A DNA stretch of 64,000 nt from an uncultured Gammaproteobacteria bacterium. Lineage in GTDB: Bacteria; Pseudomonadota; Gammaproteobacteria; Steroidobacterales; Rariloculaceae. The stretch covers positions 199,145-263,144 of the forward strand of contig CAWDUG010000001.1 of assembly GCA_963805435.1 (NCBI GenBank), read 5' to 3'. Each line of letters starts with the position of its first letter. Position 1 is the stretch's first letter. Positions 35,470 to 60,483 of this stretch are shown one piece after another. Under the pieces are notes generated by a model. That model ran no database searches. It saw only the letters and a program-made list of their open reading frames with translations, and was not told where the DNA came from. Both the position numbers and the translations under genes were made by a program.

Positions 35470-35555
35470 TCGTTGTTCTCCTCGGGTCCGCCCGCCGAAG
35501 CTCGGATCGTCGCCGACTTCGCCGCGGGAACAATATTCGTCGTCTCCGAAGGCGC

Positions 35556-36248
35556 CTACCACTCGTGGCGGCTGCCGTTCCATTTCCAGAAGCCGCCGCT
35601 GTTTCCCAGGGCGAGCTGGTCGATGACCTTGGCGATTCCCTCGGCGCTGTCGGCCGGCGCTACGTGGGCGCTGGGGCCACCCATGTCCGTCTGCACCCAG
35701 CCCGGATGAATCAGGCCAATGGCGATGCCCTGGGGCTTGAGCTCGATCGCCGCCAGGCGCATGAACTTGTTCAACGCCGCCTTGCTTGCGGAGTACGCCA
35801 GCGAGAAAGCCATGTCGAGCGAGATCGCGCCGAGCTGGCTGGTGATATTCATCACCTTGGGATTCAGCGAACGCTTCAGCGCCGGCAACAGCGCCTGCAT
35901 GACTCTAGCGGGGCCCAGCGTGTTCACGTTCAGCGTCTCGGTCCACGCGGCGAAGTTCATGTGCGTCGCCGTCTGCTGCCCGGCTGGGCCACCGCTCATG
36001 CCCGCGTTGTTGATCAGCGTGTCGACCGAAGTGCCGGCGAGAACCTCGGCGAGCGCAGCCACGGATCTGTCGTCGCCTACATCGAGCGGAACCACGGTGA
36101 CCGCGTGTTTTCTTGCGAGGCCGTGGAGCTCTTCGGCCGTGCTCGGCGTACGGCAGCAGGCGAACACGGTGTCGCCACGCAGCGCATACAGCTTCGCCAG
36201 CGCCAGGCCTATGCCACGATTCGATCCGGTAATGACAACGTTGCTCAT
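35556..36248 (-). CDS. short-chain dehydrogenase/reductase (SDR)
   Basis: TGSNRGIG cofactor motif, NNAG, and the S...YSASK catalytic motif. Length ~230 aa. Confidence 0.85.
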   Translation of the reverse strand: MSNVVITGSNRGIGLALAKLYALRGDTVFACCRTPSTAEELHGLARKHAVTVVPLDVGDDRSVAALAEVLAGTSVDTLINNAGMSGGPAGQQTATHMNFAAWTETLNVNTLGPARVMQALLPALKRSLNPKVMNITSQLGAISLDMAFSLAYSASKAALNKFMRLAAIELKPQGIAIGLIHPGWVQTDMGGPSAHVAPADSAEGIAKVIDQLALGNSGGFWKWNGSRHEW

Positions 36249-36341
36249 GAGTTCGCTCGCAGCGGCCCGTGACGGCACGCTCGCGCGGTTCGCAAGGTAG
36301 CCCGGCGGGGAGCGCCGGGCTCTGGCAGGCCGTGGGTCCCG

Positions 36342-37655
36342 CTAGATCTGCAGCCGCCCCGTGCTCGCCCCGATCGAGTCGCAGCGCGCATTCGCGATAT
36401 CCGCGAACGCCACGAGCAGGTTCGCGGTCGGCTCCTTGTGGTCGACCGTGATGTGCCGGCCGCCCTTGAGCCGGCCGTTCGCGCCACCGAGCAGCACCGC
36501 GGGCGGGCTGTTGCGGTCGTGGGCGTTGCCGTTGCTCATGCCGGCACCCCAGTAGACGAGCGATGCGTCGAGCAACGTGCCGTCGCCGTCCGGCGTGGCC
36601 TGAAGCTTGCCGACGAACTCGGCGAATTTCGCGATCTGGTAGGTCACGAGCTTCGCGTACTTTTCGATGCCCTCCGGTTTGTCGCCGTGATGCGAGACCG
36701 GGTGATGCGGCTCGGGGATGCCGATGTGCGCGTAGCTGCGGCTGCTGCCCTCGTGACCGAGCATGAACGTGAAGACGCGCGTGATGTCGCCCTGGAACGC
36801 GAGATGCAACAAGTCGTACGTGACGGTCAGGTGATCGTCGAAGTTGTCCGGAATGCCGACGGGCGCATCGGGCGCAGCCGCGATCGTGTCCGAGCGCGTC
36901 TGCATCTTCTGTAGCGATTCCTCCACGCGGCGCACGTTCGTCAAGTACTCGTCGAGCACGGCGTTGTCGTGGCTGCCGAGCTTGCGCTCGAGGCGCGAGG
37001 TCTCGTCGGCGACCGAATCCAGGATGCTCTGCTTCCGGCGCAAGCGCGCCAAGCGCTGCTGCGCACTGCCAGGGTCGCCGAACATGCGCTCGAACGTGAC
37101 CTGCGGGTTGATGGCAACCGGCAGCGGACTCGTGTCGTCGCGCCACGCGAGCGTGTTGAAGAACACGCACGGGAAGCCGTCGCACGCGCCGGCAGCCGTG
37201 CCCATGTCCTCGGTACCGACTTCGAGCGAGCGCAGCGGCGTGTCTTCGGCCACCGCGTCCGCGATGAACTGGTCGACAGTCTTCTTCGACTCGATCTTGC
37301 CGTAGCTGCCCGCCGTGTTGACGGGACCAACGCCGTTCAGGAACGCGGCGCTCGCGCCGAGATGCACGGAGCCATCGGGCGCCTTCAGCTTGCTGATCGT
37401 GACGAGGCGCTCGCGATACGGCTCGAGCGGCTTCATGATCGGCTGGAAGTCGAACCCCGTGCCGACCTTCGTCGGATGCCAGAGCTGCGGATACACGCCG
37501 TTCGGCATGTAGATCGCGCCGAAGCGCAGCGGCCGCTTCGCGCTCGACTGGCCGAATGCCGGCAGCATCGAGTCGAGCAGCGGCAACGCGACCGCGACGC
37601 CGGCGCCGCGCAGGAAGGTACGGCGGTGCAAGTGCTTCTTCGTGATGAACGTCAT
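36342..37655 (-). CDS. DUF1552 domain protein (Tat signal), copy A
   Basis: MTFITKKHLHRRTFLRGAGVAVALPLLDSM twin-arginine signal. Contains HHPVSHH and GAGMSNGNAHD blocks. Lies directly downstream (2-nt gap) of a DUF1592-type gene, the known pairing for this family. Confidence 0.8.
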   Translation of the reverse strand: MTFITKKHLHRRTFLRGAGVAVALPLLDSMLPAFGQSSAKRPLRFGAIYMPNGVYPQLWHPTKVGTGFDFQPIMKPLEPYRERLVTISKLKAPDGSVHLGASAAFLNGVGPVNTAGSYGKIESKKTVDQFIADAVAEDTPLRSLEVGTEDMGTAAGACDGFPCVFFNTLAWRDDTSPLPVAINPQVTFERMFGDPGSAQQRLARLRRKQSILDSVADETSRLERKLGSHDNAVLDEYLTNVRRVEESLQKMQTRSDTIAAAPDAPVGIPDNFDDHLTVTYDLLHLAFQGDITRVFTFMLGHEGSSRSYAHIGIPEPHHPVSHHGDKPEGIEKYAKLVTYQIAKFAEFVGKLQATPDGDGTLLDASLVYWGAGMSNGNAHDRNSPPAVLLGGANGRLKGGRHITVDHKEPTANLLVAFADIANARCDSIGASTGRLQI

Positions 37656-37657
37656 GG

Positions 37658-40054
37658 CTACTCCCTCGTTTGCGCCACGGTGCTGAGCGCTTCCGGTTCG
37701 GCGAATTTGGTTCGCATCTGGAACGGCAGACTGTCGACAACGCCTAGAACGATAGCCGACAGTCGATAGTCGTCCTTTGCGGCGTTTCGCACAATGGTGC
37801 GAACGACGGGCATGTCCGCGGGGGTCAGACCGCGGCCCAATGCATAGATCAGGAGCTTCTCGGCTACGGTGCTCGCGAAGATGTCGGGCTTGGCCGTGAG
37901 CGCGGCCCGCAGCGCCACGGGGCCGTCGACGGCCGTGCCATCCGCGAGGATGCCCGCCGCGTCGATCGGCAGGCCGTCGATCGTCCGGTCGTGCCATTGG
38001 CCGACGGCGTCGAAGTTCTCGAGCGCGAAGCCCAAGGGGTCCAAGTTCCGGTGACAGGCGGCGCACGTCGGGTTCCTGCGGTGCAGCTCGAGCTGCTCAC
38101 GCACGGTCGACGGCCGGTCCTTCGGTTTGCTGTCCTCGAGCGCGGGCACGACGGCCGGCGGTTGCGGCGGCGGGCTGTTCAAGATGTTCGCCATGACGTA
38201 CTTGCCGCGGATGATCGGCGACGTGCGCGTGGCCGCGGAGGTGAGCGACAGGATGCTGCCGTGACCGAGCAGCCCGCGCCGCTGCGGGTCCGACAACGCG
38301 ACCTTCCGGAAGCGCGACCCGTAAACGCCCGGGATGCCGTAGTGGCGCGCCAGCCGCTCGTTCACGAACGTGTAGTCCGCCGTCAGTAGCTCGAGCACGC
38401 TGCGGTTCTCGCGCAGCACGTGGCCGAACAGCTGCTCCGTCTCGCGGCGAAACGCCTTTCTCAAGTTGTCGTCGAAATCCGGGAACATCAGCAGATCGGG
38501 CACCACCCGCTGCTCGAGGTTGCGCAGCTGGAGCCACTGGCCCGTGAAGTTCTCGACGAGCGCGTCGGCGCGTGGATCGGCAAGCATCCGGCGCACTTGC
38601 GCCTCGAGCTCGCGCGGCTTCGACAAATCGCCGTCGATCCCGAGCTTGAGGAGCTCGTCGTCCGGGATGCTCGACCAGAGGAAGAACGATAGCCGCGACG
38701 CGAGCTCGACGTCGCTGACTCGGTGCGCAGAGCCGGCCGGCAGGTCCGCGGCGTCGCTCTCGGCGCGAAACAGGAACGACGGGCTCACGAGCATCCGCGA
38801 GAGGCCCGCGCGGATGCCGCTGTCGAAGTTCCCGCCTTCCTCGCGTTCGCTGGCGTAGAACGATAGCGGTGCGGCGACGTCGTCGTCGTCCACGGGACGA
38901 CGGAACGCGCGTTTGGCGAGCGCCGCGAAGATGTCGTGCGCGCACGCCGGCTCCTCGGCGGGCGACGCGGGAGCGCAGACGAAGATCCGCGCGCGCGTAG
39001 GCGTGTCGCTCACGCCACGCACGTCGTACGGTCCCGCGACATTCGCCGTCTCGAGCCGCGGCAGGCCGGCCGGGTTGTGCGCCTCCTGCGAATCGCGCAG
39101 CGATGGCTGCCAAGCGTTCTGCTCGACCGCCGGCCGCTCGACCCACGTGAACGCGACCTCGTGCGGCCCCGCCATGATCGGAATACGCGGCGAGGTCATG
39201 CGTTCGTCGATCACGACGCGCGACGCGAGGATGTCGGCCGCGCTGCCCTTGTGGTCCTCGGGCCCGCCTACGAGCGCGGTGTAGACCTGCTCGCCGTCCA
39301 CGGCGATCACGAACTCGTACGGGGTATCGTGGCCTTCGACGCCGACGTAGCCCTCCGCCACCGTGCGCAGCAGCCGGCCCGAGAACACGTAGTCGGCGTC
39401 GGCCGGAAAGTTGTGCGTAACGACCGTGCCGCCGCGCGTGCCGAGCGGCAGGCCTTCGAGATGCGCTTCCTGCGTGACGTCGACCGGGATCTTGTAGGCC
39501 GCGTTGGTCGGCACCGCGTCGGGATTGCCGACGGCCGCATCCGCGATCCGCAGCGCTGCCGTGAGATAGCGCTCGAGCAGCAGCGGCGAGGTCGTGAGCA
39601 CGGCAGCGATGTTGTCGAACCCGAAGTCCCCGCCGTCGCTCGGCAAGAGCTCGGCAACGTTCATCTCGACGCCGAGCAGGTCGCGAATGGCGTTCGCGTA
39701 CTCGGCGCGGTTCAAGCGATGCACGGGTTGCCTGCCCGCGTACGGCGCGGCTGCGGCCGCGTCGTCGAGCGTGCGCTCGAGCGCAGTGGCGAAATCGTCG
39801 CGCAACGCGTGATCGGGTTGGGGCTCGTTGCGCGGCGGCATCATGCCGAGCCGGAGCTTCTTGATCGCGGCTTCCCAGATGCGGGCATCCTTCACGATGT
39901 TCTCGGGCCGCACGTGCTCGAACGAGATATCCGCCGTGAGCTCGGCGTCGTTGTGGCAGTCGACGCAGTACTTGTCGAGCATGGCCCAACGTTCGTGGAG
40001 CACCGTCTCGGGAGCGGATGCCGACTTCAGATACATCGCGACGCCCGCAGCCAC
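37658..40054 (-). CDS. DUF1592/DUF1587/DUF1595/DUF1588/DUF1585 multidomain protein with two CxxCH motifs, copy A
   Basis: YCVDCHN (39953-39967), LRLGMMPP, HRLNRAEYANAIRDLLGV, FGFDNIA, ELASRLSFFLWSS and TCAACHRNLDPLGFALENFD. A likely N-terminal TM segment (MRKSVLH, then IAGAGAVVAVAAG) begins at the ATG at ~40099 in another frame, so an indel near ~40078 is possible. Confidence 0.8.
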   Translation of the reverse strand: MAAGVAMYLKSASAPETVLHERWAMLDKYCVDCHNDAELTADISFEHVRPENIVKDARIWEAAIKKLRLGMMPPRNEPQPDHALRDDFATALERTLDDAAAAAPYAGRQPVHRLNRAEYANAIRDLLGVEMNVAELLPSDGGDFGFDNIAAVLTTSPLLLERYLTAALRIADAAVGNPDAVPTNAAYKIPVDVTQEAHLEGLPLGTRGGTVVTHNFPADADYVFSGRLLRTVAEGYVGVEGHDTPYEFVIAVDGEQVYTALVGGPEDHKGSAADILASRVVIDERMTSPRIPIMAGPHEVAFTWVERPAVEQNAWQPSLRDSQEAHNPAGLPRLETANVAGPYDVRGVSDTPTRARIFVCAPASPAEEPACAHDIFAALAKRAFRRPVDDDDVAAPLSFYASEREEGGNFDSGIRAGLSRMLVSPSFLFRAESDAADLPAGSAHRVSDVELASRLSFFLWSSIPDDELLKLGIDGDLSKPRELEAQVRRMLADPRADALVENFTGQWLQLRNLEQRVVPDLLMFPDFDDNLRKAFRRETEQLFGHVLRENRSVLELLTADYTFVNERLARHYGIPGVYGSRFRKVALSDPQRRGLLGHGSILSLTSAATRTSPIIRGKYVMANILNSPPPQPPAVVPALEDSKPKDRPSTVREQLELHRRNPTCAACHRNLDPLGFALENFDAVGQWHDRTIDGLPIDAAGILADGTAVDGPVALRAALTAKPDIFASTVAEKLLIYALGRGLTPADMPVVRTIVRNAAKDDYRLSAIVLGVVDSLPFQMRTKFAEPEALSTVAQTRE

Positions 40055-40096
40055 CGCAACGACGGCGCCCGCGCCAGCAATGTAGCACGGACTTCC

Positions 40097-41711
40097 TCAT
40101 TGCGCCGCGCGCACGTCTGCGGACGCCTGCGTCTCGACCGTGGGCCGCTTCGCGGCGTCGCGCAGCAGCGCGACGACCTCTTCGGGCTTCGCGCCGTCCT
40201 TGTTGCGTCCAGGGCCAAATGGATTTGCGTTCGGGTCGTCGGGCTTCAGCTTCAGCGCGAGATCGAGCGCCGTGAGGCCGTCGCTGTTCTTGGCCTTGAG
40301 GTCCGCTCCGCCTTCGATCAGAGCGCCGAGCGTATCGAGGTTGCGGAGATCGACGGCCTTCATCAGCGCCGTGGCGCCGTCGGGCCCGACGGCGTTCACG
40401 TTCGCGCCGGACGCGATCAGGAGCCGTGCGGCGTCGGCCGGCTTGCGGTTCGACGGCTCGCGAAACGGCGGCGGCCCGGCGCGCGAGTAGCCCGGGCCGG
40501 CGGACAGCGGCACGCCCTTGCCGCCGTTGATCGCGACCAGCAGCGCCGTCTTGCCGACGTTCGTGTTCGCGCCGGGGCCCGCCGTTCTTGGCGTTCGTCG
40601 GCGTCCACTCGAGATTCGCGCCGTGCGCGATCAACAGCTTCAGCGCCTCGACGTCGGCGGCGACCGCGGCGCGATAAAACGGCGACGCGTTCGCGAACGT
40701 GTCGCAGCACATCGACGCCGAGTGCATCTGGCCGACGAACGGCTTGTTCGGGTCGGCGCCCTTGTCGAGCAGCAGCGCGATCAGGTCGAGCGCCGTGCGC
40801 TCGTTCGCGAAGTTGTTGCGCAGCTTCGAGCCGTCGTGCGCGTACCAGTCCGTGGTCGCGTCGCGCATCTCGACGGCGTGATAGAGCGAGCCGTCGTTCA
40901 CGTCTGCGCCGAGGTCGACGAGCTTCGCCGCGAGGTCGAAGCGATCGTTGACGATCGTGATCATCAGCGCCGTGGCGCCATCGCCGTTGCGAGCGTTCAA
41001 GTCCGCGCCGGCCGCGACGAGCCGCCGCACGATGCCTTCGTGGCCATTGCGCGCGGCCCACATCAGCGCCGTGAAGCCGCCGGAGGGGTAGTCCGCGTTC
41101 TTGCGGTCCGTCAACACGTTCACGTGGGCTTGCGCGTTCGGATTCGCGCCTGCCGCGAGCAGCGCGTCGACGACCGCCTCGTGCCCTTCGGCCGCGGCCC
41201 ACATCAGCGCCGTCTGTTGCTGGAAGGACTCTTGCGCGTTCGGGTTCGCGCCGTGGGCGAGCAGCAGGCGCACGGCTTCGAGACCACCCGACTGCGCCGC
41301 GGCCATCAGCGGCGTCTCGCCGTCGGGATGTGCGAGGTCGGCGCTCGCGCCGGCATCGAGCAGCGCCTGCACGATGCCCGCATCGCCGGTTCGGCTCGCC
41401 TGCAGCAGCGGGGTGACGCCGTACTTGTTCGCGGCGTTCGCATCGGCGCGCGCGGCCGCGAGCGCCTTCACCATCTCGATATCGGAGTTGTACGCGGCCC
41501 ATAGCAGCGCGGTGGAGCCGTCGGGGGCGGGCAGGTTCACGTCCGCCCGCGACGCGATCAGCTGTTTCACGGTCGCGAGGTCGTCGGCGCGCGCGGCCTT
41601 GGCGATCGGACTATCGGCAGCCATTGCCGGCGCGGTCGCGAGCACCGCGGCCAATAGGACGAACCCGAGTGTGGACAGGCAGTGAATGCCCGGTTGCTTC
41701 TGCGTACGCAT
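40097..41711 (-). pseudogene. secreted ankyrin-repeat protein, copy A, one frameshift
   Basis: Signal MRTQKQPGIHCLSTLGFVLLAAVLATAPAMA. Repeated G-x-TALMWAA...GH...V..LL..GA-x-N units follow. The reading frame changes in a G/C run near ~40585; the tail is ORF 40097..40513. Confidence 0.75.
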
Positions 41712-41858
41712 CTCATCCCCCCGGCGAGGCGAACACTTGTTCAATAGGCCGACTGGCAGCGCTGCCGCCGGCCCCGCTTTTTCGCTGAGAATAGCGGCAA
41801 ATCGCGGAGGGTGCCACAACCAAAATACCCGTTGCCGAGAGCGGAGTCGCCGTCGGCG

Positions 41859-44229
41859 CTATGCCTCGGCCGCCTCGAGCGCCGCCAGCACGCGCTCCTT
41901 GCGGAACGGCGCCCGCCGCAGGCGCACGCCCGTCGCGTCGTGAATCGCGTTCGCCACCGCCGCAATCACGGGCTTGTGGCTCGCCTCGCCCGCGCCGTAG
42001 TGCGGCAGGTCGGGGCGATTCGGATTCGGGTCGCCGTTGACGATCACCACGTCGATCTTCTCCGGCGCGTCGGAATGCCGCAGGCTCGGGTGCGTGGCCC
42101 AGTCCACGCTCTTGACCTTCTCGGTATCGAACTGCACTTCTTCCCACAGCGCGCGGCTCAAGCCGTGCTGCATGCCGCACTCCACGGTGCGCGTGAGACC
42201 GAGCGGGTTGATCGTGAGCCCGCAGTCGTGCGCGCACACCAGGCGCTTCGTCCAGACGCGGCCGGTCTCGCGGTTGACTTCCACCTCGGCGATCACGGCG
42301 ACGACGGTGTTGCTGCGGTAGGTGTATGCGATGCCGCGGCCCGTGAGGACGGGGCCTTTGCCGCGCGGCTTCGGCGACGGCCGCGTGTCCCAGCCGAAGG
42401 TTTCGGTGGCCGCTTTGATCACGGCGAGCGAGCGCGCTTTCCTGAACACGTCGTCCTCGGTGCTGCCGGCGATCATGTCGAGCCTGGAATTTCACGGGAT
42501 CGGTCTTGGCGGCCGCCGCGAGCTCGTCGATGAACGACTCGAACGCGAACGTCACCTGCGGACCGTTCGGGTCGCGCAGGTTGCCGGTGCGCAGCGGCGT
42601 CTCCCAGATCATCGGCAGACTCACGACCTGCGCCGTCATGCGTTGATGCGCAATCGCGTACTGCACCGACGGTTTCTCCGCGTTGCCCGGGGCGGGCTTC
42701 GCAGGCCGCTTACCCATGAGCTGAGCGATGAGCACCGTGTCCGGATCGTTGTACCAGACGTGGTTGTAGTCGAGCGAGCGCGCGTCGTACTCGAGCGCCA
42801 CGAGCTTGCCGTTGGCGTCGAGCCCGCCGCGCAGCTTGAACGTGTAGGCCGGGCCTTTCGTATCCCACGCCGTTTCCTCGTGCCGCATCCACTGCACGCG
42901 CACCGGTACCCCAAGCTCATGCGCCAGGAACGCGGCCTCGAAGCCAACGTCGTCGGCGGCCGTGCGGCCATAGACCTGCGGCCCGTCCATGTAGACCACG
43001 CGCACGCGCTCGCGCGGCAGGCCTAAGAAGGTCGCCACGCCGTTGCGCTGGCCGTACGACTTCATGTCGTTGGTGTAGATCGTGAGCTGATCGCCGGTGG
43101 GGTCGGCCAACGCGTGTGCGGGGCCGATGGCGGTGTGGCCCTGGAACGGCACCTCGTACTCGGCTTCGACGACGCGAGCGGCGCCTTTCAGCGCGGCATC
43201 CGGGTCGCCCTTGATGTCGGGCTTCTCGCTCGACGTGGGTGTTGCGCTGCGTATGTAGTCGAACAGCTTGTCGGAAGCCGGGAACGGCGCCTCGGCCGGC
43301 GGCGTCCAGTCGGCTTTCAGCTGCCGTGCCGCCTGGATGGCCTGCTCCTCGCGTTCGCACACCACGGCCACGTAGTTGCCGCGGCGCACGACGCGGACGA
43401 GGCCGGGCACGCTCGCGACCGACGACTCGTCGATGCTGCGCAGCGTGGCGCCCGCGATCGGCGGTTTCACGTTGCGCGCATGCAGCATGCCGGGCAGCTT
43501 CATGTCCACGGCCCAAGTCAACGAGCCATCGACCTTGGCGGGAATGTCGTAGCGCTGGACGGGCGTGCCGACCACGCGCAGCTCCTGCACGGGCTTGACG
43601 CTGGCCGCGCCGGTGGTGAAGTCGACGTTGCGCCCGGTGAGCGCGACGTTGAAACGCTTGCCGCCGACGAGTTCGGCGTACGTGACGGACTTCGAGGGAT
43701 CGGCTTTCACCGCGATCGTGGCGTTGCGCACGGCGAGCCCAGCGACCGGCGTCTTCAGGTGCTCGGAGCCGAGCTCGAGCAACACGCGCCGCGCTTCGGC
43801 GGCGACTCTGCGCGCCGGCCAGCCGTCGCGCTCGATGGCATCGGAGCCGCCCGAGCCGCCCTGGTCCGGCGTGGTGTCGGTGCGGCCCATGACGAGGCGG
43901 GTCTTGTCGTACGCGATGTCGAGCTCGTCGCACATCATTTGTCGGAACGCCGTGCCGGTGCCCTGGCCGCCATCGGTTTTGCCCACGAGGAAGGTGGCGG
44001 TGTTATCCGGATGGATCACGATCCAGGTGTCGAGCTTCAGAAAGTCGGGATCCGGGTACGGCCCCGCGCCGACGGCCTGGGCGAGTGCGCGGCCGCCGGG
44101 GATGGCGCCCGCGCCGAGCGTCACGACCAGGGCGCCCGAGGACGCCAGGAAACTGCGGCGCGAAAGCGCCGGGTTGACGCTACGCAGCGCATCTTCGATC
44201 GCTTTCGGAAGCTTGAGGGGAGTGCTCAT
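41859..44229 (-). pseudogene. molybdopterin-binding dehydrogenase large subunit (IorB / aldehyde oxidase family), Tat signal, one frameshift
   Basis: MSTPLKLPK...LSRRSFLASSGALVV is a Tat signal. GGQGTGTAFRQMMCDELD, QGGSGGS and FQGHTAIGPA blocks are present. The C-terminal 205 aa are in ORF 41859..42476 (GAGEASHKPVIAAVANAI), with the junction near ~42480. Confidence 0.8.
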
Positions 44230-44711
44230 TTCTTGGCCTCCGTGGCGCTCGACAGGTTGCCCCGCACGACGCGCTTGATGGCTGCCTGAATGCGGTAGTA
44301 GGTCATGCAGCGACAGAGGATGCCTTCCATACGCTCGCGGATCTCGGCGTCCGTCGGGCTCGGGTTGCGGTCGAGCATGGCCTTCGCCGTCATGATCTGG
44401 CCGTTCTGGCAGTAGCCGCACTGCGGCACCTGTTCGTCGATCCACGCTTGCTGCAGCGGATGCAGCTTGCCGTCCTTCGCGAGACCCTCGAGCGTCGTGA
44501 TTTCGCCCTTGGTCTGGCCGACGGGCGTGATGCACGAGCGCATGGCCACGCCGTCGACGAGGACGGTGCACGCGCCGCACTGCGCGAGCCCGCAGCCGAA
44601 GCGCGGGCCCTGGAGCTCAAGATCGTTGCGCAGTACATATAGAAGAGGAGTGGACGGCTCGACGTCCACTTCGTGGGTGGCGCCGTTGACGCGCAAGGAA
44701 ACGACTGGCAT
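44226..44711 (-). CDS. (2Fe-2S)-binding small subunit of the Mo-dehydrogenase (IorA-like)
   Basis: MPVVSLRVNGATHEVDVEPSTPLLYVLRNDLELQGPRFGCGLAQCGACTV and QCGYCQNGQIM...CRC are the two [2Fe-2S] cysteine clusters. Its stop overlaps the large-subunit ATG (ATGA at 44226-44229). Confidence 0.9.
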   Translation of the reverse strand: MPVVSLRVNGATHEVDVEPSTPLLYVLRNDLELQGPRFGCGLAQCGACTVLVDGVAMRSCITPVGQTKGEITTLEGLAKDGKLHPLQQAWIDEQVPQCGYCQNGQIMTAKAMLDRNPSPTDAEIRERMEGILCRCMTYYRIQAAIKRVVRGNLSSATEAKK

Positions 44712-44843
44712 GGGATACCCCCGGGGAAGCGCAGGTGGCTTAGGCGTTGACCCTAGACCAAACGACGGCGGAATGGCAATGGCGGCGCGCGGCGAGCCGC
44801 CGGCTCGCATGACCTCGGCGCTGGGACCCGCGAGCGCTGGTGC

Positions 44844-45521
44844 CTAACTCCCGACGGCATTCGCGCGCTGTCGCCGTGGCCGGGCATGCCCCCGCGTGGG
44901 GGCGGCACTGGACGGAGCGCCGAAATCTCCGGGTGGCGTGAATACGAACAGCACGCGAGCCACGCGTCGGCTCGCGTTTGCGAAGCTGTGGGGGCGGTCG
45001 TAGGAGAAGACGAAGGTGTCGCCCGCCTCAACCTTGTGCGTCTTGCCGTCTACCGTCAACGCGATCCTGCCCTCCATGACAAAGCCGAGTTGCTCGCCGG
45101 CACCGTGTTGCAGCGACGGTTCCGATCCGGCGCCGGGCATCAGCTTCACCAGCGCCGCCTCCATGCGGTGGTCGGGGCTCGCGGGCAGGAGCTTCGTGAT
45201 CTCCATGCCCGTGACCGAGAACACCGGATGGTGGCCCGCCTTGGTGACGATGGAGCCGGGATCCCGAGGCGCCTGGAGCAACGTCGTCACGTCCAGACGC
45301 AATGCCTTGCAGATGCGGAACAGCATGCCGAACGACGGCGTGGTCTTGTCGTTCTCGATCTTCGACAGAACGCTCGGTGAGCAGCCGGCGCGCGTAGCAA
45401 GGTCGTCGAGCGTGAGGTGGCGAATGCGTCTCGCCTGTTTCAAAGCGTAACCGAAAGCGTGCTCTTTGCTAGGCGCGCGCTTCGTCGCGCGCGTCGAGGC
45501 CCGCTTGGCAGCGTTGGGCAT
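44844..45521 (-). CDS. XRE-family HTH transcriptional regulator with C-terminal cupin domain
   Basis: LKQARRIRHLTLDDLATRAGCSPSVLSKIENDKTTPS is an XRE HTH. It is followed by GEQLGFVMEGRIALTVDGKTHKVEAGDTFVF, a cupin. ATG at 45519-45521. Confidence 0.8.
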   Translation of the reverse strand: MPNAAKRASTRATKRAPSKEHAFGYALKQARRIRHLTLDDLATRAGCSPSVLSKIENDKTTPSFGMLFRICKALRLDVTTLLQAPRDPGSIVTKAGHHPVFSVTGMEITKLLPASPDHRMEAALVKLMPGAGSEPSLQHGAGEQLGFVMEGRIALTVDGKTHKVEAGDTFVFSYDRPHSFANASRRVARVLFVFTPPGDFGAPSSAAPTRGHARPRRQRANAVGS

Positions 45522-45647
45522 TCTCCGTCCTCCCCTTCGTAGACGTTCGCCACGGTTGTGCCGCGCGAGTCGTTCGCCGGAGATTCTAAAGCAGTTTCGG
45601 TGTCGCGCCCGAGTGATCGGGCGCAACGCGCGACCAGGAAAGAAAAC

Positions 45648-45676
45648 TTGACTGGCAAGCAAGACTCTTATATTAG
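45648..45676 (+). promoter_or_regulatory. candidate sigma70 promoter (TTGACT, 17-nt spacer, TATTAG) in the only AT-richer stretch of the window
   Basis: TTGACT at 45648-45653 and TATTAG at 45671-45676. Located between the divergent XRE-cupin regulator and the TonB-dependent receptor, ~400 nt upstream of the receptor ATG. Confidence 0.35.
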
Positions 45677-52250: not shown

Positions 52251-54690
52251 ATGCGACGTAATCTCTGGCTGGCCGGCGCCGCGGTCGCGGTCGTGGCCGC
52301 CGTGGCCGTCGGTCGTCGGTCACGCGTTTCGAGCAGCGGCGCGAGCAGCAGCGCTTCGCGCTGTTCACGAAATACTGCACGGACTGCCATAACGCCGCGG
52401 ACTTCGCGGGTAACCTGTCGTTCGAGCAGGTGACGCCGGACTCCGTGCCGCAGCACGCCGCGCAGTTCGAGGCCGCCATCGTGAAGCTGCGCGGCCGGCT
52501 CATGCCGCCGCCCGGCAATCCGCAGCCCTCGAAGGCCGACGTCGACGGGCTCATCGCGACGCTCGAGCGCACGATCGACGAGCATGCGCCGCAGCAGATC
52601 GGCTACGTGGCCGCGCAGCGGCTCGACCGCACGGAATACGCGAACGCCGTGAAGGCGTTGCTCGACGTCGACATCGATCCGAAGGAATACCTGCCGGCCG
52701 AGATCGAGATCCACGGCTTCACGAACATCGCGGCCGCGCTCAGCACGTCGCCCTCGTTCGTCGAGCAATACGTCGACGCCGCGGGCGCCGTCGCGCACCT
52801 CGCCGTCGGCGAGCCGAATCCGAAGGTGGCCAACGCGTACTTTCCGCCGCCCACGGCGCGCCAGGACGCGTACGTGCCGGGCCTGCCGCTCGGCACGCGC
52901 GGCGGCACGAAGTTCACGCATACGTTCCCGGCCGACGGCGAGTATCGGCTCACGATCGCCGATCTCGGCCTGGGGCTGTACCCGCGCGCGGTCGAGACGC
53001 GGCAGACGCTCGTGGTGCTCGTCGATCGCGCCGAGCAGTTCCGCGCCGACATCGGCGGGCCCGAGGACTTGGCGCTCGTGAACTTGGGCGGCGCGCCCGC
53101 GCGCGCGGAGGTCATGAGCCGCTTCAAGAACATTCCGCTGAAGGTCACGGCCGGCACGCACGAGGTGGCCGTCACGTTCATCGAGCGCTCGCGCGCGGCG
53201 GACGACGAGCAGATCGCCGACTACGGCCCGAGCGCCGGCTTCTCGTTCTCGAGCGCGCAGCGCGTCGCGGGCATCATCGGCGGCATCAACATGGTGGGCC
53301 CGTTCAATTCCACGGGCTCACGAAGACCGAGAGCCGCAAGAAGCTCTTCGTCTGCGAGCCCGAAGTCGCGGCGCGCGAGCGCGAGTGCGCGCTTGAAATC
53401 ACGGCCAACCTCGCGCGGCGCGCGTTCCGCCGGCCCGTGGGCCAGGCGGACGTCGACCGGCTCATGCCGTTCTTCGACGAGGGCCGCAAGGGCGCGGGCG
53501 GCTTCGACGAAGGCATCGAGCTCATGACCACGGCGGTGCTCGCGAGCCCCGATTTCCTGTATCGCTCGATCGCGCCGGCGCAGGACGCTGCCGCCGCGAG
53601 CCACGCGCTCACGGCGCTCGAGCTCGCGTCGCGGCTCTCGTTCTTCCTGTGGAGCCAGGGCCCCGACGACGAGCTGCTGAAGCTCGCGGAGTCGGGGGAG
53701 CTCGCGCGCCCGAACGTGCTCGCGGCGCAAGTCTCGCGCATGCTCGCCGACCCGCGCGCCGAAGTGCTCGTGACGAGCTTCGCCGAGGGCTGGCTCGCGC
53801 GTCGACGATCTCGACGCCGTGCAGCCCGACAAGCTTCTGTACCCCGAGTTCACGCGCGGGGCTGCGCGAGGATTTCGCCGAGGAGATCCGCCTGTTCCTG
53901 ACGAGCGTGCTGCTCGAGGACCGCAACGTGCAGACGCTGCTCACGGCCGACTACACGTTCGTGAACGAGCGGCTCGCGCGCCACTACGGCATCGACGGCG
54001 TCGTCGGGCCGCAGTTCCGCCAGGTGAAGCTCGACAGATCCCGTGCGCCACGGCCTGCTCGGCAAGGGCGCGATGCTGCTGCGCACGTCGTACGGCAACC
54101 GCACGTCGCCCGTGCTGCGCGGCGCCTGGGTGCTCGACAAGCTCATGGGCACGCCGCCGACGCCGCCGCCGCCCGGGGTCGAGACGAATCTCGACACGCC
54201 CGAGGGCGAGCAGCCGAAGACCGTGCGCGAGCGGCTGCAGCAGCATCGCAAGAATCCCACCTGCGCCGCGTGTCACGGCGTGATCGATCCGTACGGGCTG
54301 GCGCTCGAGAATTTCACGGCCACCGGCGCCTGGCGCACGGTCGACACGGAAGCCGGGGCGCCGATCGACCCGCACTCGGAGCTCTCGGGCGGCAGGCCCG
54401 TCGACGGCCCGGCGGCGCTCACCGCCGCGCTGCTCGCGCGCGACGACCAGTTCGTGCAAGCGCTGACCGAAAAGCTCATGATGTATGCGCTCGGGCGCGA
54501 GCTCGAGTACTACGACATGCCGCAGGTGCGCGCGATCGTGCACGCCGCGAAGGGGCAGAATTACAGGTTCTCGGCGCTGGTCGCCGGCATCGTGCAGAGC
54601 GACGCGTTTCGCATGCAGGCCGCGGCGCCCAGGGGAGAATCTTCGAATCGAGGCTCGGCGCAGGCGTCGCTCGGCGCCGCCGGCCGGTAG
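52251..54690 (+). pseudogene. DUF1592-type multidomain protein with two CxxCH motifs, copy B, five or more frameshifts
   Basis: MRRNLWLAGAAVAVVAAVAV (TM segment), then FTKYCTDCHNAADFAGNLSFEQV, LRGRLMPPPG, QRLDRTEYANAVKALLDV, ELASRLSFFLWSQ, LLTADYTFVNERLARHYG and TCAACHGVIDPYGLALENF. These are spread over ORFs 52251, 52430, 53437, 53819, 53649 and 54043 in different frames. Confidence 0.75.
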
Positions 54691-54704
54691 CCAAGGGGAA
54701 GCTC

Positions 54705-56049
54705 ATGTTCATCACGAAGAAGCATCTGTCCCGCCGCACGGTGCTGAAGGCCGCCGGCGTTTAGCTTGAGCCTGCCGCTGCTCGACGCGATGATCCCGGC
54801 GGCCACGGCGCTCGCGCAGACCGCGGCAAAGCCGAAGCTCCGCGCCGGGTTCTTCTACATTCCGCACGGCGCGATCATGTGGAACACGCCGTACGGCAAG
54901 GACATGGACCACTGGACGCCGAGCGGCGCGGGCGCCGACTTCAAGTTGAGCCCGATCTTGAAGCCGCTCGAGAACTACAAGCGCTACGTAGCCACGTTCG
55001 GCAACCTCGAGAACAAGCTGCCGCAGGGCTCCGTGCACACGATCGTGCCGGCCACGTGGCTCTCGAGCGTCAAGCCGGACCAGAAGGCCACGGGCGCGCA
55101 CATGGCGCAGACGATCGACCAGATGATCGCGGCGAAGATCGGCGGCGACACCGTGCTGCCGAGTCTCGAGGTGGCGTCCGAGACCACCACGCAGAGCGCC
55201 GCGTGCGGCACGGGCGCGTGCTACTACAGCTCGACGCTGTCGTTCCGCAACGCCACCACGCCGCTGCCGATGGAGTTCAACCCGCGCAAGGTGTTCGTGC
55301 AGCTGTTCGGCGCCGGCGACACGGCCGAGGAGCGCGCGACGCTCGCGCACCGGCGCGCGAGCGTGCTCGACATGATCAGCGGCCGCACGCAGGAGTTGAA
55401 GCGCGAGCTCGGCCCCGCCGATCAGCGCGTGCTCGACGGCTACCTCGAGTCCGTGCGCGAGACGGAGCGGCGCGTCGCGAAGGCGTCCGAGCGCGATCTC
55501 ACCGGCATCGACCTGCCCGGCGCGCCGATCGGCGAGCTGCCGGATTTCGATGAGCAGGTGAAGCTCATGTTCGATCTGATCCACCTCGCGTATCAGGCGA
55601 ACATCACGCGCGTGGCGTCGTACATCATGGTGGCCGAGGGCACGAACCGCACGTACAACCACATCGGCGTGTCCGACGCGTTCCACCCGCTGTCGCACCA
55701 CGCGAACAACAAGGACCGCATCGAGAAGCTCGTGAAGGTGCAGACCTACCACGTGCAGCGCTTCGCGGACTTCTTCGACAAGCTCGCGAAGACGCCCGAC
55801 GGCGAAGGCTCGCTGCTCGATCACTCGCTGCTGATGTACGGCTCGAACATGAGCAACAGCGATCGGCACAACAACTATCCGCTGCCGATCCTGCTCGCCG
55901 GCGGCGCGAACGGCGCGTTGAAGGGCGGGCAGCACGTGATGTTGCCCGAGTACACCACGTTCTCGAATCTGCATCTCACCGTTTTGAACAAGGCCGGGCT
56001 CGAGCAGAAGAGCATCGGCGACAGCACGGGCGAGATCGCGGGCGTCTAG
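54705..56049 (+). pseudogene. DUF1552 domain protein (Tat signal), copy B, one frameshift in the signal region
   Basis: MFITKKHLSRRTVLKAAGV stops at 54762-54764. ...LSLPLLDAMIPA continues in ORF 54766..56049, which carries FHPLSHH and GSNMSNSDRHN. Junction at a TTT run near ~54762. Confidence 0.8.
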
Positions 56050-56066: not shown

Positions 56067-57026
56067 ATGTCCTTCGCAACGGCAATCAACCGGCGCGATG
56101 TGATGCGCGGGCTCGCGGCGCTGAGTCTGGCGCCGCTCGCCGTGTCCGTCGCGCGCGCGGCGGATGCACTCACCGTTACCGATGTTGGGCCCGACATCAA
56201 AGTGATCTGCCGGTGGGGGCGGCAACATCGTGGTGCTGGCGACCAGCGCCGGGCTCGTCCTGGTCGACAGTGGTTCGGCGGAGGCGCGGCAAGAGACTCT
56301 CGCCAGGATCGCCAGGATCGCCAGGGAAGACAAGAAGAGCGGTGGGGCCGGTGCGAAGGTGGTCGCACTCGTGAACACTCACTGGCATCCCGATCAGACC
56401 GGGGCGAATGAGGCGCTCGGGACGGCCGGGGCGACGATCATTGCGCACGCGAAGACGCGGCAGCGGCTGACCGCCGGGTGGTACGTGCCGGCGGACGATC
56501 GGTACGAGAAGCCCCTGGCTGTTGCTGGTCGGCCTACGAAGACGTTCTTCACGTACGGACGCGGTGACGTTCGGCGACAGGCAGCGTCGAGCTCGGCTAT
56601 CTGATCGAGGCGCACACCGACGGCGACGCGTACGTGCGGCTTCCCGACGGAACGTGATTGTGGCGGGCGACGCGGTCTCTCCGCAGCGCGACCCCGTGCT
56701 CGATTGGTTCGGCGGCGGCTGGCTCGGCGGCCGCGTCGATGCGCTCGCGAAGCTGCTCGCGCATGGGCGACGCGCGCACGCGGTACGTGCCGAGCTTCGG
56801 CCCCGTGATCGGGCGCACCGAGGTGCAGGCCGAGCACGACCTCATGCTCACGATCTTCGACCGCATCGTCGTGAACTTGCGGCAGGGCCAAACGGCCGCC
56901 GACATGCAGAAGGCGGGCGTGCTCGACGGTCTGCCGCGCACGTTCGAGGACCCCGCCAAGTTTCTGTACGACGCGGACAAGGGTTTCTGGGCGCATCACA
57001 ACAAGCTCATGCCGGACATCGTATGA
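56067..57026 (+). pseudogene. Tat-exported metallo-beta-lactamase-fold hydrolase, four or more frameshifts
   Basis: MSFATAINRRDVMRGLAALSLAPLAVS is a Tat signal. VALVNTHWHPDQTG is an H-x-H-x-D-type motif with Gln in the last position. EAHTDGDAY, VIVAGDAV and the C-terminal ...GFWAHHNKLMPDIV lie in several frames. Confidence 0.65.
56301..56325. repeat. 9-bp tandem repeat (CGCCAGGAT x2 plus a partial unit) inside the MBL-fold gene
   Basis: cgccaggat cgccaggat cgccagg read directly from the sequence. It encodes ARIARIAR in frame. Confidence 0.8.
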
Positions 57027-58590
57027 ACAAGCTGCCTTCATGGCTGCGGTTCTGGCTCTGACCTCGAGCGCGGCGCTCGCGGACAGCCCGCTCGCCGACG
57101 CGATCGAGAACGGCCGGCGCGACGTCGCGCTCGATGCTCATCGAGCAGGGCGCGGACGTGAACGCCGCGCAAGGTGACGGCACCACGCCGCTGCACTGGG
57201 CCGCGTACAAGCTCGACGCCGATCTCGTCGAGCGCCTCGTGAAGCGCGGCGCGCACGCGGCCACGCAGAACCGCTTCGGCGCCACGCCGCTCGGTGAGGC
57301 CGCGAAGGCCGCCAACCTCGAAGATCGTGAGGCTGCTGCTCAAGGCCGGCGCCGCCGTCGACGCGGCGAACGGCGACGGCGAGACGGCGCTGATGCTTGC
57401 TGCGCACACGGGCTCGGTCGATGTGGTGAGCGCGCTGATCGCCGCCGGCGCCAACGTCAACGCACGCGAGGCGTGGCGCGACCAGACCGCGCTGATGTGG
57501 GCGGCCGAAGGCGCGTACGCCGATCTCGTCGAAGCTCTTGATCCAGCACGGCGCCGACGTGCACGCGCGCGCCGCGGCCAACGACTGGGGCTCACAGATC
57601 ACGAACGAGCCGCGCGCGCAGTACCGCCCCACGGGTGGTCTGACGCCGCTGCTGTATGCCGCGCGCTCGGGTTGCGCCGAGTGCGTGCGCGCCATTCTCG
57701 CCGCGGGCGAGAACGTGGATCGGCCGACGCCCGACGGCGAGACCGCGCTGCTGCTCGCGATCGACAACTACGAGTTCGATACCGCGAAGGTGCTGCTCGA
57801 CGCGGGCGCGAATCCGCTAGCCACCGATTGGTGGGGCCGCACGGCGCTGTATCTCGCCGTCGACATGAACACGCTACGTGCCGCGCACGGGCGAGCCCCA
57901 TCCGCGCTCGAAGACCACCACGGCCATGGATCTCGTGCGTGCGCTGATCAGTGCCGGGCGTGGACGTGAACGCACAGCTGAACTTCCATCGGCCCGGGCG
58001 CGGCGGCAACAGCGCGCGGTTCGTCGACGATCTTCTGACGACGGGTGCCACGCCGCTGCTGCGTGCCGCGATCATGCACGACAACGACGCGCTGCGCGCG
58101 CTGCTCGCAGCTGGCGCAGAGGTGGATCTGCCGAACGTCATGGGCGTGACGCCGCTGATGGCCGCGGCCGGCGTGGGCGTGCGCGAGCCCGGGTTCGGCG
58201 CGAATCGTGCGCCGGACTTCACGAGCAAGAAGATCGAGAGCGAGGTCATCGCGTCGCTCGACATCCTGCTCGCGGCCGGCGCCAACGTGAACGCTCGAAA
58301 TCACGGATTTGCAAAGCCGTACGGCCCGCATCGCGCGCTTGAACTCGATGACGGATCGGCAGGGGCAAACGGCGCTGCACCAGGCGGCTGGGCGCGGTTG
58401 GACCGAGGTCGTGGGGTACCTGCTCGCGCACGGCGCGAACCCTGGCGTGAAAGACACGCTCGGCCGCACGGCGCTGAATCTCGCCACCACGCCCGTACAG
58501 GGCCGGCCCGTGCCGAACGGCGACAAGATCGCCGAGATGCTCAAAGTGGCTGCCGCCGGCGGCAGCGCGACCGCGCGCGCGGGAAACTGA
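57023..58590 (+). pseudogene. secreted ankyrin-repeat protein, copy B, six or more frameshifts
   Basis: The ATG at 57023 overlaps the MBL stop (ATGA). Signal ...AVLALTSSAALA. Ankyrin units (GDGTTPLHWAAY, GDGETALMLAAHTGSVDVVSALIAAGANVNA, QTALMWAAEG, GQTALHQAAGRGWTEVVGYLLAHGANP) are dispersed over ORFs 57134, 57294, 57538, 57951 and 58309. Collinear with copy A. Confidence 0.7.
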
Positions 58591-58608: not shown

Positions 58609-60435
58609 ATGCGAATCGATTCGAAGCGCGCGGCAGTCGCGGCGCTCGCGGCGGCCGCTGGGTTCGGCGGCCGCGCTGGCTCAGCACGCACCCGCTGCGC
58701 CGCCGAAGTTCACGGCGAAACAGCTCGCGGCACCCGGTACCGACGGCTGGATCACGAACGGCGGTAACGTCTACAACCAGCGCTACTCGCCACTCGCGCT
58801 CATCAACAGAGACAACGTGGCGAAGCTGAAGCCGAGCTGGCGCACGCACTTGAACGGCTCGGCCACGGAGAGCAAATACTCGGGCCAGGCGCAGCCCATC
58901 GTCTACGACGGCGTGATCTACATTTCTACCGGCGCGAACGACGTGTTCGCGCTCGACGCGGACACGGGCAAGATCGTGTGGAGCTACGAGGCGCACCTCG
59001 ACGCCGGCATCACCGTCGTGTGCTGCGGCTGGGAGAGCCGCGGCGTCGCGATCGGCGACGGCAAGGTGTTTGCCGGCCAGCTCGACGGCAAGCTCGTCGC
59101 GCTCGACTACAAGACCGGCAAGGTTGCGTGGCAGGTGCAGGCGGAGACGAACGCGGACGGCTTCAGCATCACCACCGCGCCGCTGTATTACGACGGCCTC
59201 GTGATCACGGGTTTCGCGGGCGGCGACAAGGCCTCTCGCGGCCGCGTGAAAGCGTTCGACGCGAAGCAACGGCAAGCTCGTATGGACGTTCTACACGGTG
59301 CCGGCGCCGGGCGAAGCTGGGCCACGACACCTGGCCCAGCAGCAACGAAACGTGGAAGCACGGGGGCGCGGCCGTATGGCAAACGCCAGCCGTCGATCCC
59401 GAGCTCGGCCTCGTGTACTTCTCCACGGGCAACCCAGGCCCCGATCTGAACGGCTCCGTGCGGCCCGGCGACAACCTGTTCACCGTGTCGATCGTGGCCA
59501 TCGAGGCGAAGACCGGCAAGTACCGCTGGCACTTCCAGCAGGTGCATCACGATCTGTGGGACTACGATTCGCCGAATCCCGTGGTGCTGTTCGACGCCGT
59601 GGTCAACGGCGCGCTCGCGCAAGGGTATCGTCGAGATCGGCAAGACGGGCTACGTGTACATTCTCGACCGCGTGACGGGCAAGCCGCTCGTCGGCATCGA
59701 GGAGCGGCCTGTGCCGCAGGAGCCGCGCCAGGCGACGGCCAGCGACGCAGCCGATTCCGCTCGGCGACGAGGTCATTCCGCACGAGATCGACATCGAGCC
59801 CGAGGGCTTCAAGCTCGTCAACAAGGGCCGCATCTTCACACCGTTCTGGGACACGCCCGTGGTCGTGAAGCCGCTCGGCACGGGGGGTGCGAACTGGCCG
59901 CCGAGCTCGTACGACCCCGAGACGAATCTCTTCTATGTGTGCACGGGCGACGGCGCCGCCGCGTACTCCACGAAGGAGGGCGGCGTGGAATGGGTGATGC
60001 CGAAGCCGGGCGGCCGCTATTTCGGCGGCGATTACACGCGCTCGCGCGTGCCGCGCCGCGGCGTGCTGGCCGCCGTGGACGTGCGCACCAACCGCCTCGC
60101 CTGGCGGCAACAGTGGGGAGAGCTCTGCTACGCGGGCTCCACCGTCACGCGCGGCGGCCTGCTCTTCATCGGCCGCAACGACGGTCGCTTGCAAGCGCTC
60201 GATAAATCAGACGGCAGCCTGCTCTGGGAGTACGAAACGGACGCCGGCATTCATGCGGCCGTGAGCACGTTCGAGCGCGGGCAGCCAGCAGTACGTGGTG
60301 GCGCTCTCGGCCGGCGGGTTCTTTCCGGGCACGAAGCGCGGCGACAGCGTGTACCTGTTCGCGCTCGATGGCGGCGGGTTGCCGAGTGGCGGCAAGGCGG
60401 AGCCTTCGGGCGGCGGGGTGGAGCTCACGCACTAG
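58609..60435 (+). pseudogene. PQQ-dependent alcohol dehydrogenase (quinoprotein, no cytochrome domain), five or more frameshifts
   Basis: Signal peptide. NQRYSPL, IYISTGANDVFALDADTGK, the vicinal VVCCGW cysteines, WQTPAVDPELGLVYFSTGNPGPD, HHDLWDYDSPNP and GANWPPSSYDPETNLFYV are spread over ORFs 58817, 58978, 59654 and 59859. Confidence 0.8.
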
Positions 60436-60483
60436 CGTTCGCCGGCACGGCGACGCTCGTTCCGTGAGCGGCGCGCTGCCGAT

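Follow-up and report, generated by a model that had tools for sequence, protein, structure and literature searches.

A putative autonomous ankyrin-DUF1592-DUF1552 cassette, apparently inserted beside a molybdenum dehydrogenase operon in an uncultured gammaproteobacterium

Proteins combining PSCyt3 and PSD domains (DUF1587, DUF1595, DUF1592, DUF1588, DUF1585) and adjoining DUF1552 proteins form a gene pair that was reportedly first seen in Rhodopirellula baltica, by Studholme and co-workers in 2004. This pair has been mentioned as unexplained (He et al. 2017, PMC5615132). One such pair was analyzed here in a window of 64,000 nucleotides from an uncultured gammaproteobacterium of the Rariloculaceae (contig CAWDUG010000001.1 of assembly GCA_963805435.1, the source genome; positions below are those of the window). 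It resembles the described pair in domain architecture (in the order PSD3-PSD5-PSD4-PSCyt3-PSD2), in its CxxCH motifs, in the adjoining co-directional DUF1552 gene with a twin-arginine translocation (Tat) signal, and in the many paralogues per genome. It differs by a fixed third member, an exported ankyrin-repeat protein of ~500-550 amino acids, and one subtype adds a gene for a metallo-beta-lactamase (MBL)-fold protein. In the window these three genes follow genes for IorA- and IorB-like subunits of a molybdenum (Mo) dehydrogenase, and the initial annotation proposed that they supply the missing electron-transfer or maturation partner of this enzyme. With somewhat better than even confidence we regard the three genes (cassette A) instead as an autonomous cassette that was inserted beside a host operon and encodes a periplasmic haem-linked enzyme module, not the missing cytochrome of IorAB, and its frameshifts as errors. 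The same judgement extends to the host operon, taken to consist of IorA, IorB, a short-chain dehydrogenase/reductase (SDR) gene and a DUF6152 pair and to encode a periplasmic two-subunit molybdenum hydroxylase or aldehyde dehydrogenase, with IorA outside the cassette.

Ankyrin proteins of the AnkB/Cj1386 type, which are much smaller than ~540 amino acids, provide a further comparison. Periplasmic ankyrin partners of catalases have been described in Pseudomonas aeruginosa (KatB-AnkB), in Campylobacter jejuni (KatA-Cj1386) and in the Leptospira katE operon, and proteins of this type are thought to stabilise the haem partner or to aid haem loading (PMC10294975). Cassette A likewise encodes an exported ankyrin protein in one operon with a putative haem protein, the ankyrin and DUF1592 genes sharing an ATGA overlap. 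However, the partner of AnkB and Cj1386 is a catalase and that of the present ankyrin protein a c-type cytochrome or phosphatase-fold protein, and the latter also pairs in the absence of a haem protein gene. In the PVC (Planctomycetes-Verrucomicrobia-Chlamydiae) group, a role in electron transport has been proposed for a PSCyt/DUF1501 module (Kamneva et al. 2012, PMC3542564). This PSCyt1/PSCyt2/PSD1 plus DUF1501 module is similar in joining a large exported protein with cytochrome c motifs to an enzyme-like Tat protein and in being heavily duplicated, but both partners belong to other Pfam families and no ankyrin partner has been described there; DUF1501 was matched only twice in the source genome, which has about 17 DUF1552 loci. 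Cbp2D of Cellvibrio japonicus is an exported protein with c-type cytochrome domains, DUF1587 (PSD3) and a carbohydrate-binding module (CBM), one haem domain of which gives electrons to lytic polysaccharide monooxygenases in vitro (Branch et al. 2021, PMC8981238). Its likeness to the DUF1592 protein is limited to the one shared domain, DUF1587 (PSD3); Cbp2D has a different architecture (CBM2, X158, FN3, X183, X132) and neither a DUF1552 nor an ankyrin partner.

The evidence for an insertion comes from orthologous loci. When the window was compared by blastn with six orthologous loci (L026, L024, L027, L058, L025 and L028), only positions 41737 to 36342 aligned, at up to 83% nucleotide identity. 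This stretch begins 26 nt ahead of the ankyrin start and ends at the DUF1552 stop, and both flanks are unrelated in all six; none of these relatives, including the annotated loci L024 and L025, has IorAB beside its orthologous trio. Conversely, a relative of ~85% nucleotide identity (locus L107) is collinear with the window in three blocks (Table 1) and lacks trio A, the SDR gene following IorB there after ~50 nt. Because IorA, IorB and the SDR gene are contiguous in L107 and collinearity holds on both sides, trio A is read as a 5.5-kb insertion between IorB and the SDR gene in the present lineage, and the SDR gene, directly after IorB in L107, as a part of the IorAB operon. No terminal repeats or target duplications were found around cassette A, only the 99-nt periodicity of the ankyrin repeats. 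The cassette is shown to be the unit of conservation, duplication and relocation.

Table 1 Features of the window discussed in the text and blocks collinear with locus L107
Feature	Position	Strand	Basis
SDR-family oxidoreductase	35556..36278	-	NCBIfam SDR family matches; collinear with L107 2799-3492
DUF1552 (HXXSHH) protein A, 437 aa, intact, last gene of cassette A	36342..37655	-	Pfam HXXSHH E 4e-81; Tat motif HRRTFL
DUF1592-type protein A	37658..40100	-	Pfam PSD3, PSD5, PSD4, PSCyt3, PSD2; weak PSCyt1
Exported ankyrin-repeat protein A, ~537 aa, first gene of cassette A	40097..41711	-	Ank_2 E 5e-49 (N-terminal piece), E 1e-8 (C-terminal piece)
Cassette A as a unit	36342..41737	-	Sole stretch matching orthologous loci of relatives (blastn); missing in L107
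IorB-like molybdopterin-binding large subunit	41859..44229	-	Pfam MoCoBD_1 and MoCoBD_2 on both pieces; Tat motif SRRSFL
IorA-like 2Fe-2S small subunit, xanthine-dehydrogenase-family Mo enzyme	44226..44711	-	Pfam Fer2_2 E 3e-31, Fer2
DUF1592-type protein B, several frameshifts	52251..54700 (approximate)	+	tblastn and open reading frame (ORF) pieces; collinear with intact 811-aa L107 gene
DUF1552 protein B, frame change near 54760	54705..56049	+	ORF and tblastn
Tat-exported MBL-fold protein, fourth gene of copy B, frameshifted	56067..57026	+	Lactamase_B in orthologous L107-L110; tblastn in source genome
Exported ankyrin-repeat protein B, frameshifted	57023..58590 (end approximate)	+	ORF and tblastn; L107 comparison
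Type-I PQQ alcohol dehydrogenase without cytochrome domain, frameshifted	58620..60437 (start approximate)	+	Intact orthologues carry HDLWDYDSPNP
L107 collinear block 1	33738-36249		DUF6152 pair and SDR gene
L107 collinear block 2	41869-44792		IorB and IorA; 94% and 84% amino acid identity
L107 collinear block 3	52190-60437		Module B and PQQ alcohol dehydrogenase

Neighbour statistics agree with the orthologous loci. IorAB lies within 10 kb of three of the 81 trio loci elsewhere, which is about chance level; the enrichment of IorAB near trios that would have favoured the initial annotation did not appear there. Its proposal that the block is the missing partner of the Mo-dehydrogenase does not hold against orthologous trios without IorAB and an L107 operon without the trio. 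That this dehydrogenase has no cytochrome subunit is correct, but not special, since it applies to essentially all of the ~10 IorAB loci of the source genome. None of these has a multi-haem cytochrome gene within 4 kb, and eight of the ~10 lack both a cytochrome gene and a trio in their vicinity; the locus on contig C4 has an ORF with a single CxxCH motif two genes downstream. In contrast, membrane-bound three-subunit Mo aldehyde dehydrogenases and NicAB-type enzymes carry a subunit or domain of the cytochrome c type. The present enzyme resembles them in having a 2Fe-2S small subunit (Fer2_2) and a Tat-exported large subunit that binds molybdopterin (MoCoBD_1 and MoCoBD_2), but the IorAB loci of the source genome encode no such cytochrome c part and the DUF1592 protein is not a conserved neighbour. 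A second IorAB-adjacent module in the source genome (contig C13:473198) consists of DUF1552 and ankyrin genes without a DUF1592 cytochrome; the DUF1552-ankyrin pair there (C13:476989-479741) is preceded by IorA-IorB and a ~280-aa exported protein without assigned family. Because the cassette is self-contained, many times repeated and recently inserted, its neighbourhood appears to give no evidence that it serves the Mo-dehydrogenase.

The order of the five genes on the minus strand (IorA, IorB, ankyrin, DUF1592, DUF1552) given by the initial annotation is borne out by ORFs and Pfam domains, and the overlaps and gaps that it listed are correct: the IorA stop and IorB start overlap in ATGA, IorB and the ankyrin gene are 147 nt apart, and the gap between the DUF1592 and DUF1552 genes is 2 nt. 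The signal peptide of ankyrin protein A ends in APAMA/AD, and this protein aligns across its frame break with intact orthologues of 539 and 555 amino acids. DUF1592 protein A (Pfam E-values: PSD4 3e-48, PSCyt3 7e-33, PSD3 2e-24, PSD2 2e-21, PSD5 7e-20) starts with an N-terminal membrane anchor, presumably for the inner membrane, and a class-I-like cytochrome c domain (C30xxC33H34...M72PP), followed by PSD3, a CBM-like beta-sandwich, PSD5, PSD4, PSCyt3 (C664xxC667H668) and PSD2. Both CxxCH motifs named by the initial annotation, YCVDCHN and TCAACH, are present and conserved: in an alignment of 56 homologues C33, H34, C664, C667 and H668 are invariant and C30 occurs in at least 90%. M72-P73-P74 is invariant as well, an M-P-P motif being typical of the distal Met in class-I cytochromes c. 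The match of DUF1552 protein A to the TAT_signal model is weak (E 0.002), yet its HRRTFL motif is present and R11 and R12 occur in at least 90% of 65 sequences. An 'MCCD' motif in the ankyrin protein was considered as a metal or disulfide site and dropped, as it is conserved within only one of the two layouts described below (layout A, that of cassette A) and below 60% across the family. NCBIfam holds no model matching the DUF1592 or DUF1552 protein; the ankyrin protein matches generic ANK-containing models only, far under the cut-offs, and all IorA matches are under the equivalog cut-offs. A scan for promoters and terminators over 35.9-46.1 kb gave none above the shuffled background.

Searches with tblastn revealed about 17 DUF1592/DUF1552 loci in the source genome, about 14 of which have an adjoining ankyrin gene. 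A scan of one genome per species gave 79 further loci, in Gammaproteobacteria of Candidatus Rariloculaceae/Rariloculus and in Acidobacteriota (Vicinamibacterales, Bryobacterales, Terriglobia). Among the 81 loci, the ankyrin gene adjoins its trio partners in nearly all of those that have enough flank, across the two phyla. The suggestion that the ankyrin protein is a constant extra partner was thus strengthened, and our literature search found no paper mentioning an ankyrin partner of DUF1592/DUF1552. Two layouts occur. Ank-DUF1592-DUF1552 is the orthogroup of cassette A, with DUF1552 proteins 54-86% identical to that of the window, even in Acidobacteriota; in DUF1592-DUF1552-Ank the identity is 42-48%. 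The layout-A DUF1552 proteins of the Acidobacteriota loci L032 and L036-L054 are 63-66% identical to the window protein, and the DUF1552 paralogues of the source genome, all but one, just 37-43%. These identities point to old paralogy combined with transfer between phyla. The 48 genomes behind the loci contain from 6 to more than 38 DUF1552 copies each. The DUF1552 family is large (8,250 cluster representatives at E <= 1e-10). Among 400 evenly sampled Pseudomonadota genomes, DUF1552 occurred in just five others, each time as a single copy with a DUF1592 gene and without an ankyrin gene within 8 kb. Because of these five pairs, the ankyrin partner is taken to mark one expanded DUF1552 clade and not the whole family.

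The recurrence of the trio at 52251-58590 noted by the initial annotation stands, in so far as a second copy (copy B) is real; its order, however, is DUF1592-DUF1552-MBL-ankyrin, with the extra MBL-fold gene, and it is riddled with frameshifts. DUF1552 protein B belongs to an orthogroup with 82-97% identity across many metagenomes. Homologues of the MBL-fold protein (at least 42% identical) lie inside four-gene modules in 37 of 40 sampled loci, in both phyla, and the MBL-fold family has 2-24 copies per genome (source genome and G001-G047). The adjacent pyrroloquinoline quinone (PQQ) alcohol dehydrogenase was likewise correctly described as having no cytochrome domain: the window copy ends without CxxCH, as does its intact orthologue of 606 amino acids, and intact orthologues of 606-621 amino acids have PQQ and PQQ_2 domains and no CxxCH. 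With its PQQ beta-propeller without a cytochrome domain it resembles type-I PQQ alcohol dehydrogenases that work with a cognate soluble cytochrome c.

The DUF1552 and DUF1592 proteins of cassette A were modelled with AlphaFold2. DUF1552 protein A (pLDDT 80, pTM 0.81) gave 13 Foldseek matches at E <= 1e-3, all in the alkaline-phosphatase superfamily (sulfatases, LtaS, phosphonate monoester hydrolase, YejM or related) and with probabilities of mostly 0.98-1.0 and in one case 0.84; it thus models as an alkaline-phosphatase/sulfatase-superfamily fold. Searches of PDB sequences with the DUF1552 profile and the DUF1592 protein gave no meaningful match, and in an hhalign comparison of the DUF1552 profile with the sulfatase of the window the signal peptides alone were aligned. 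Histidines (H98, H318, H322, H379) dominate the invariant residues of DUF1552, which also include D128, D213, D230, D363, S321 and the C158/C163 pair. Judged by sequence and secondary structure, strand 1 is followed by P51-(H/N)52-G53, and H98 falls where a helix begins. DUF1592 protein A was modelled as one compact body (pLDDT 89, pTM 0.89) without a global Foldseek match in the PDB. The beta-sandwich between PSD3 and PSD5 (residues ~183-347), for which the Pfam scan gave no match, shows a local match to CBM6/35/36 and to the carbohydrate-binding domain of BcsB (Foldseek probability 0.9-0.99, weak E-values). It fits the published observation that some DUF1592 relatives carry CBMs (PMC5615132, PMC6004670).

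The genomic neighbours give some clues to function. Most modules stand alone, and only 69 genes were found co-directional within 200 nt of about 85 modules. The commonest are c-type cytochromes (mono-haem, di-haem or HHH-domain fusions), with 10 Cytochrome_CBB3 and 5 Cytochrom_C matches, families that overlap on the same proteins. Their prevalence speaks for a redox role of the modules, with soluble cytochromes c as probable partners. At one locus (L088:12996-15686) a small cytochrome c gene and a gene for a 745-aa Pfam peroxidase (PF00141, KatG-like) follow the ankyrin gene co-directionally. At two others (L109/L110:12957-15557) genes for a 195-aa protein, a FAD_binding_4 flavoprotein and a 132-aa cytochrome c lie downstream of the ankyrin gene of an MBL-type module, an arrangement like that of p-cresol-methylhydroxylase-type flavocytochromes. 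Pairs of DUF1552 and ankyrin genes with start/stop overlap and without a DUF1592-type gene within ~10 kb occur in L084, L090, L091, L101 (DUF1552 at ~10001-11320, with the ankyrin gene immediately behind it) and the source genome (C13:476989), and pairs of Tat-MBL and exported ankyrin genes without DUF1552 or DUF1592 nearby in L124 (9097-11664), L120 and L133. The ankyrin family is therefore apparently not tied to the cytochrome; since it pairs with DUF1552 alone or with Tat-MBL alone, its distribution points to the Tat-exported enzyme-fold protein as its direct partner. In the proposed mechanism the three cassette proteins would form an autonomous periplasmic complex. DUF1552 would be the metal-dependent catalytic subunit, and the two-haem DUF1592 protein would move electrons between DUF1552 and soluble c-type cytochromes while holding a ligand through its beta-sandwich. 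The ankyrin protein may bind the Tat-exported subunit as its dedicated scaffold or chaperone.

A number of observations weigh against such an autonomous module. Haem binding by DUF1592, complex formation and catalysis are all inferred, and the TM-scores of the DUF1552 Foldseek matches are modest (~0.4). In the source genome two of the 17 trios have IorAB within 2 kb where 0.36 would be expected (P = 0.045, uncorrected), and in L107 the same IorAB operon lies divergently next to module B; periplasmic redox genes may thus form a loose functional neighbourhood. In the MBL-type subtype, finally, 8 of ~41 loci have a PQQ dehydrogenase as the immediate neighbour and a further one has it at a distance of one gene, where ~2% would be expected for a flanking gene.

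The last observation also speaks for an alternative that we consider doubtful, namely that the modules, at least those of the MBL subtype, cooperate with a type-I PQQ alcohol dehydrogenase by accepting its electrons or by making or processing its substrate or cofactor. The gammaproteobacterial MBL-type cases involve one orthologous HDLWDYDSPNP enzyme, and this 'DYD' enzyme stays linked despite its changing position, downstream in some genomes and divergently upstream in others. The source genome, moreover, has a PQQ dehydrogenase within 10 kb of 6 of 17 trios against 2.7 expected (P = 0.04), although never within 500 bp. Such observations need a background estimate in these lineages, because nearly every genome is rich in these genes: the source genome has 33 loci, and each of the 48 genomes at least 25-33 matches, except two with 4 and 7. 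By a rough estimate, at that density 10-18% of any set of loci would have a PQQ dehydrogenase within 10 kb by chance alone, and one was found at 12 of 81 trio loci. About 80% of the MBL-type modules and nearly all plain trios lack such a gene next to them, and none occurs within 10 kb of the closest paralogue of copy B in the source genome (C13:618168). Since the linked loci are closely related, the excess comes down to ~5 independent events, and outside the gammaproteobacterial group the neighbours belong to other PQQ subfamilies. The idea that all module-adjacent PQQ dehydrogenases are of the 'DYD' type was accordingly rejected; it is true only for the gammaproteobacterial orthologues. PQQ dehydrogenases are thus apparently not enriched beside trios in general and moderately linked to the four-gene MBL subtype. 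The wider suggestion of the initial annotation, that the block serves the PQQ dehydrogenase, survives to that extent: there is no general enrichment, but among the gammaproteobacterial orthologues of the MBL subtype the linkage has been kept through rearrangements.

A more far-reaching version of the autonomous module, in which it would represent a novel kind of haem-wired periplasmic metalloenzyme, can be imagined, although we think it rather improbable. A histidine-ligated metal centre in the alkaline-phosphatase fold of DUF1552 would carry out redox and not hydrolytic chemistry, wired to the cytochrome c pool by the two-haem partner and scaffolded by the ankyrin protein. The dozens of paralogues per genome would then represent a broad substrate range for soil Acidobacteriota and Rariloculales, and the MBL subtype would be coupled to 'DYD' PQQ alcohol dehydrogenases.

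A similarly poor chance is given to a non-redox role, in which the module is a hydrolytic or transferase system for phosphate or sulfate ester scavenging or for envelope polymer modification, with DUF1552 doing the chemistry and the haem motifs of DUF1592 being structural or sensory. The fold matches of DUF1552 to sulfatases, LtaS and YejM would suit such a role, as would the CBM-like beta-sandwich and the CBM-bearing relatives of DUF1592, and between copies A and B the window has genes for a sulfatase, a formylglycine-generating enzyme (FGE) and a TonB receptor. However, both CxxCH motifs and Met-Pro-Pro are kept in essentially all 56 homologues, and cytochrome c genes prevail among the co-directional neighbours. 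Judged from sequence and secondary structure only, DUF1552 seems to have no conserved acidic residue after beta-strand 1 and no prominent Ser, Thr or Cys at the expected nucleophile position, but conserved histidines instead. The sulfatase block is, furthermore, absent from L107. This block (44793-52189) encodes a PuuR-like regulator, a 1131-aa TonB-dependent receptor, the sulfatase and an FGE-type SUMF1 protein, and is free of frameshifts. It appears to be a second lineage-specific insertion in the region; in L107, IorA and DUF1592-B are divergent neighbours ~160 nt apart.

Three of the five genes are broken by +1 frame changes, as seen by three-frame translation and alignment to intact orthologues. 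The change in IorB lies near 42482-42486 (the intact L107 orthologue has 789 amino acids and is 94% identical), that in the ankyrin gene A is a 1-nt insertion in a gggcccc run near 40575-40580, and that in DUF1592 A falls in the first ~6 codons (~40085-40091), the uninterrupted ORF starting at GTG 40054. The true start of DUF1592 A is probably ATG 40100, with a 1-nt insertion in codons 4-6; N-termini of orthologues (MNKPIYIAAG and MKNRIYLGAG, in intact proteins of 812 and 809 amino acids in L024 and L025) compare with MRKS..YIAGAG in the window. If these changes were real, cassette A, IorB and copy B would be decaying pseudogenes. The 8.4 kb of the five genes contain three frame changes and copy B many more, whereas the 6 kb between both blocks are intact; this would fit decay, which we nevertheless think very unlikely. 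The window frameshifts are most likely assembly indel errors, because all 37 paralogue breaks examined genome-wide (DUF1592, DUF1552, IorAB) are frame changes of 1 or 2 nt (25 +1, 12 +2), without any in-frame stops or deletions, because the genome (5.07 Mb) is 72% complete in only 14 contigs, which with 1.3% contamination is typical of an indel-rich long-read bin, and because the shift that can be read at base level, that of ankyrin A, sits in a short G/C run. The same type of break is seen in the closest relative, which comes from a similar series of long-read metagenome-assembled genomes, and the encoded pieces are still 77-94% identical to intact orthologues. The density of frameshifts jumps within the window, with many in 52190-60437 (copy B and the PQQ alcohol dehydrogenase) and none in 46000-52100; this abrupt change suggests uneven polishing, coverage or strain mixing and not biology.

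That DUF1592, DUF1552 and the ankyrin protein provide the adjacent IorAB with the electron acceptor or maturation partner that it lacks is least probable of all: co-directional genes behind a short gap, the DUF1592 protein as the only CxxCH protein near IorAB in the window, the second IorAB locus on C13 and the slight excess in the source genome speak for it, but trio and operon occur without each other in relatives, most IorAB loci have no such neighbour, the C13 locus lacks the very cytochrome component required, and a plain electron acceptor needs no enzyme-fold subunit.

The small DUF6152 protein of the host operon is encoded with a ~270-aa partner of no recognised family, at 34244-35469 in the window, at 671-1890 in L107 and also in L024 and L025. 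The pair recurs by these loci and by PQQ dehydrogenases in several genomes, and one DUF6152-like protein of the source genome has a mature N-terminus of the AHHSF type.

The main value of the present analysis is negative. Because cassette insertion can yield tight co-directional gene strings in these genomes, orthologous loci should be checked before a link is proposed, and adjacency to a cytochrome-less dehydrogenase should not be taken as a functional link without that check. The DUF1592/DUF1552 systems are among the most expanded function-unassigned gene families in abundant soil bacteria, and the fixed ankyrin partner, and in one subtype the MBL-fold partner, provide handles for pull-down and co-expression studies.

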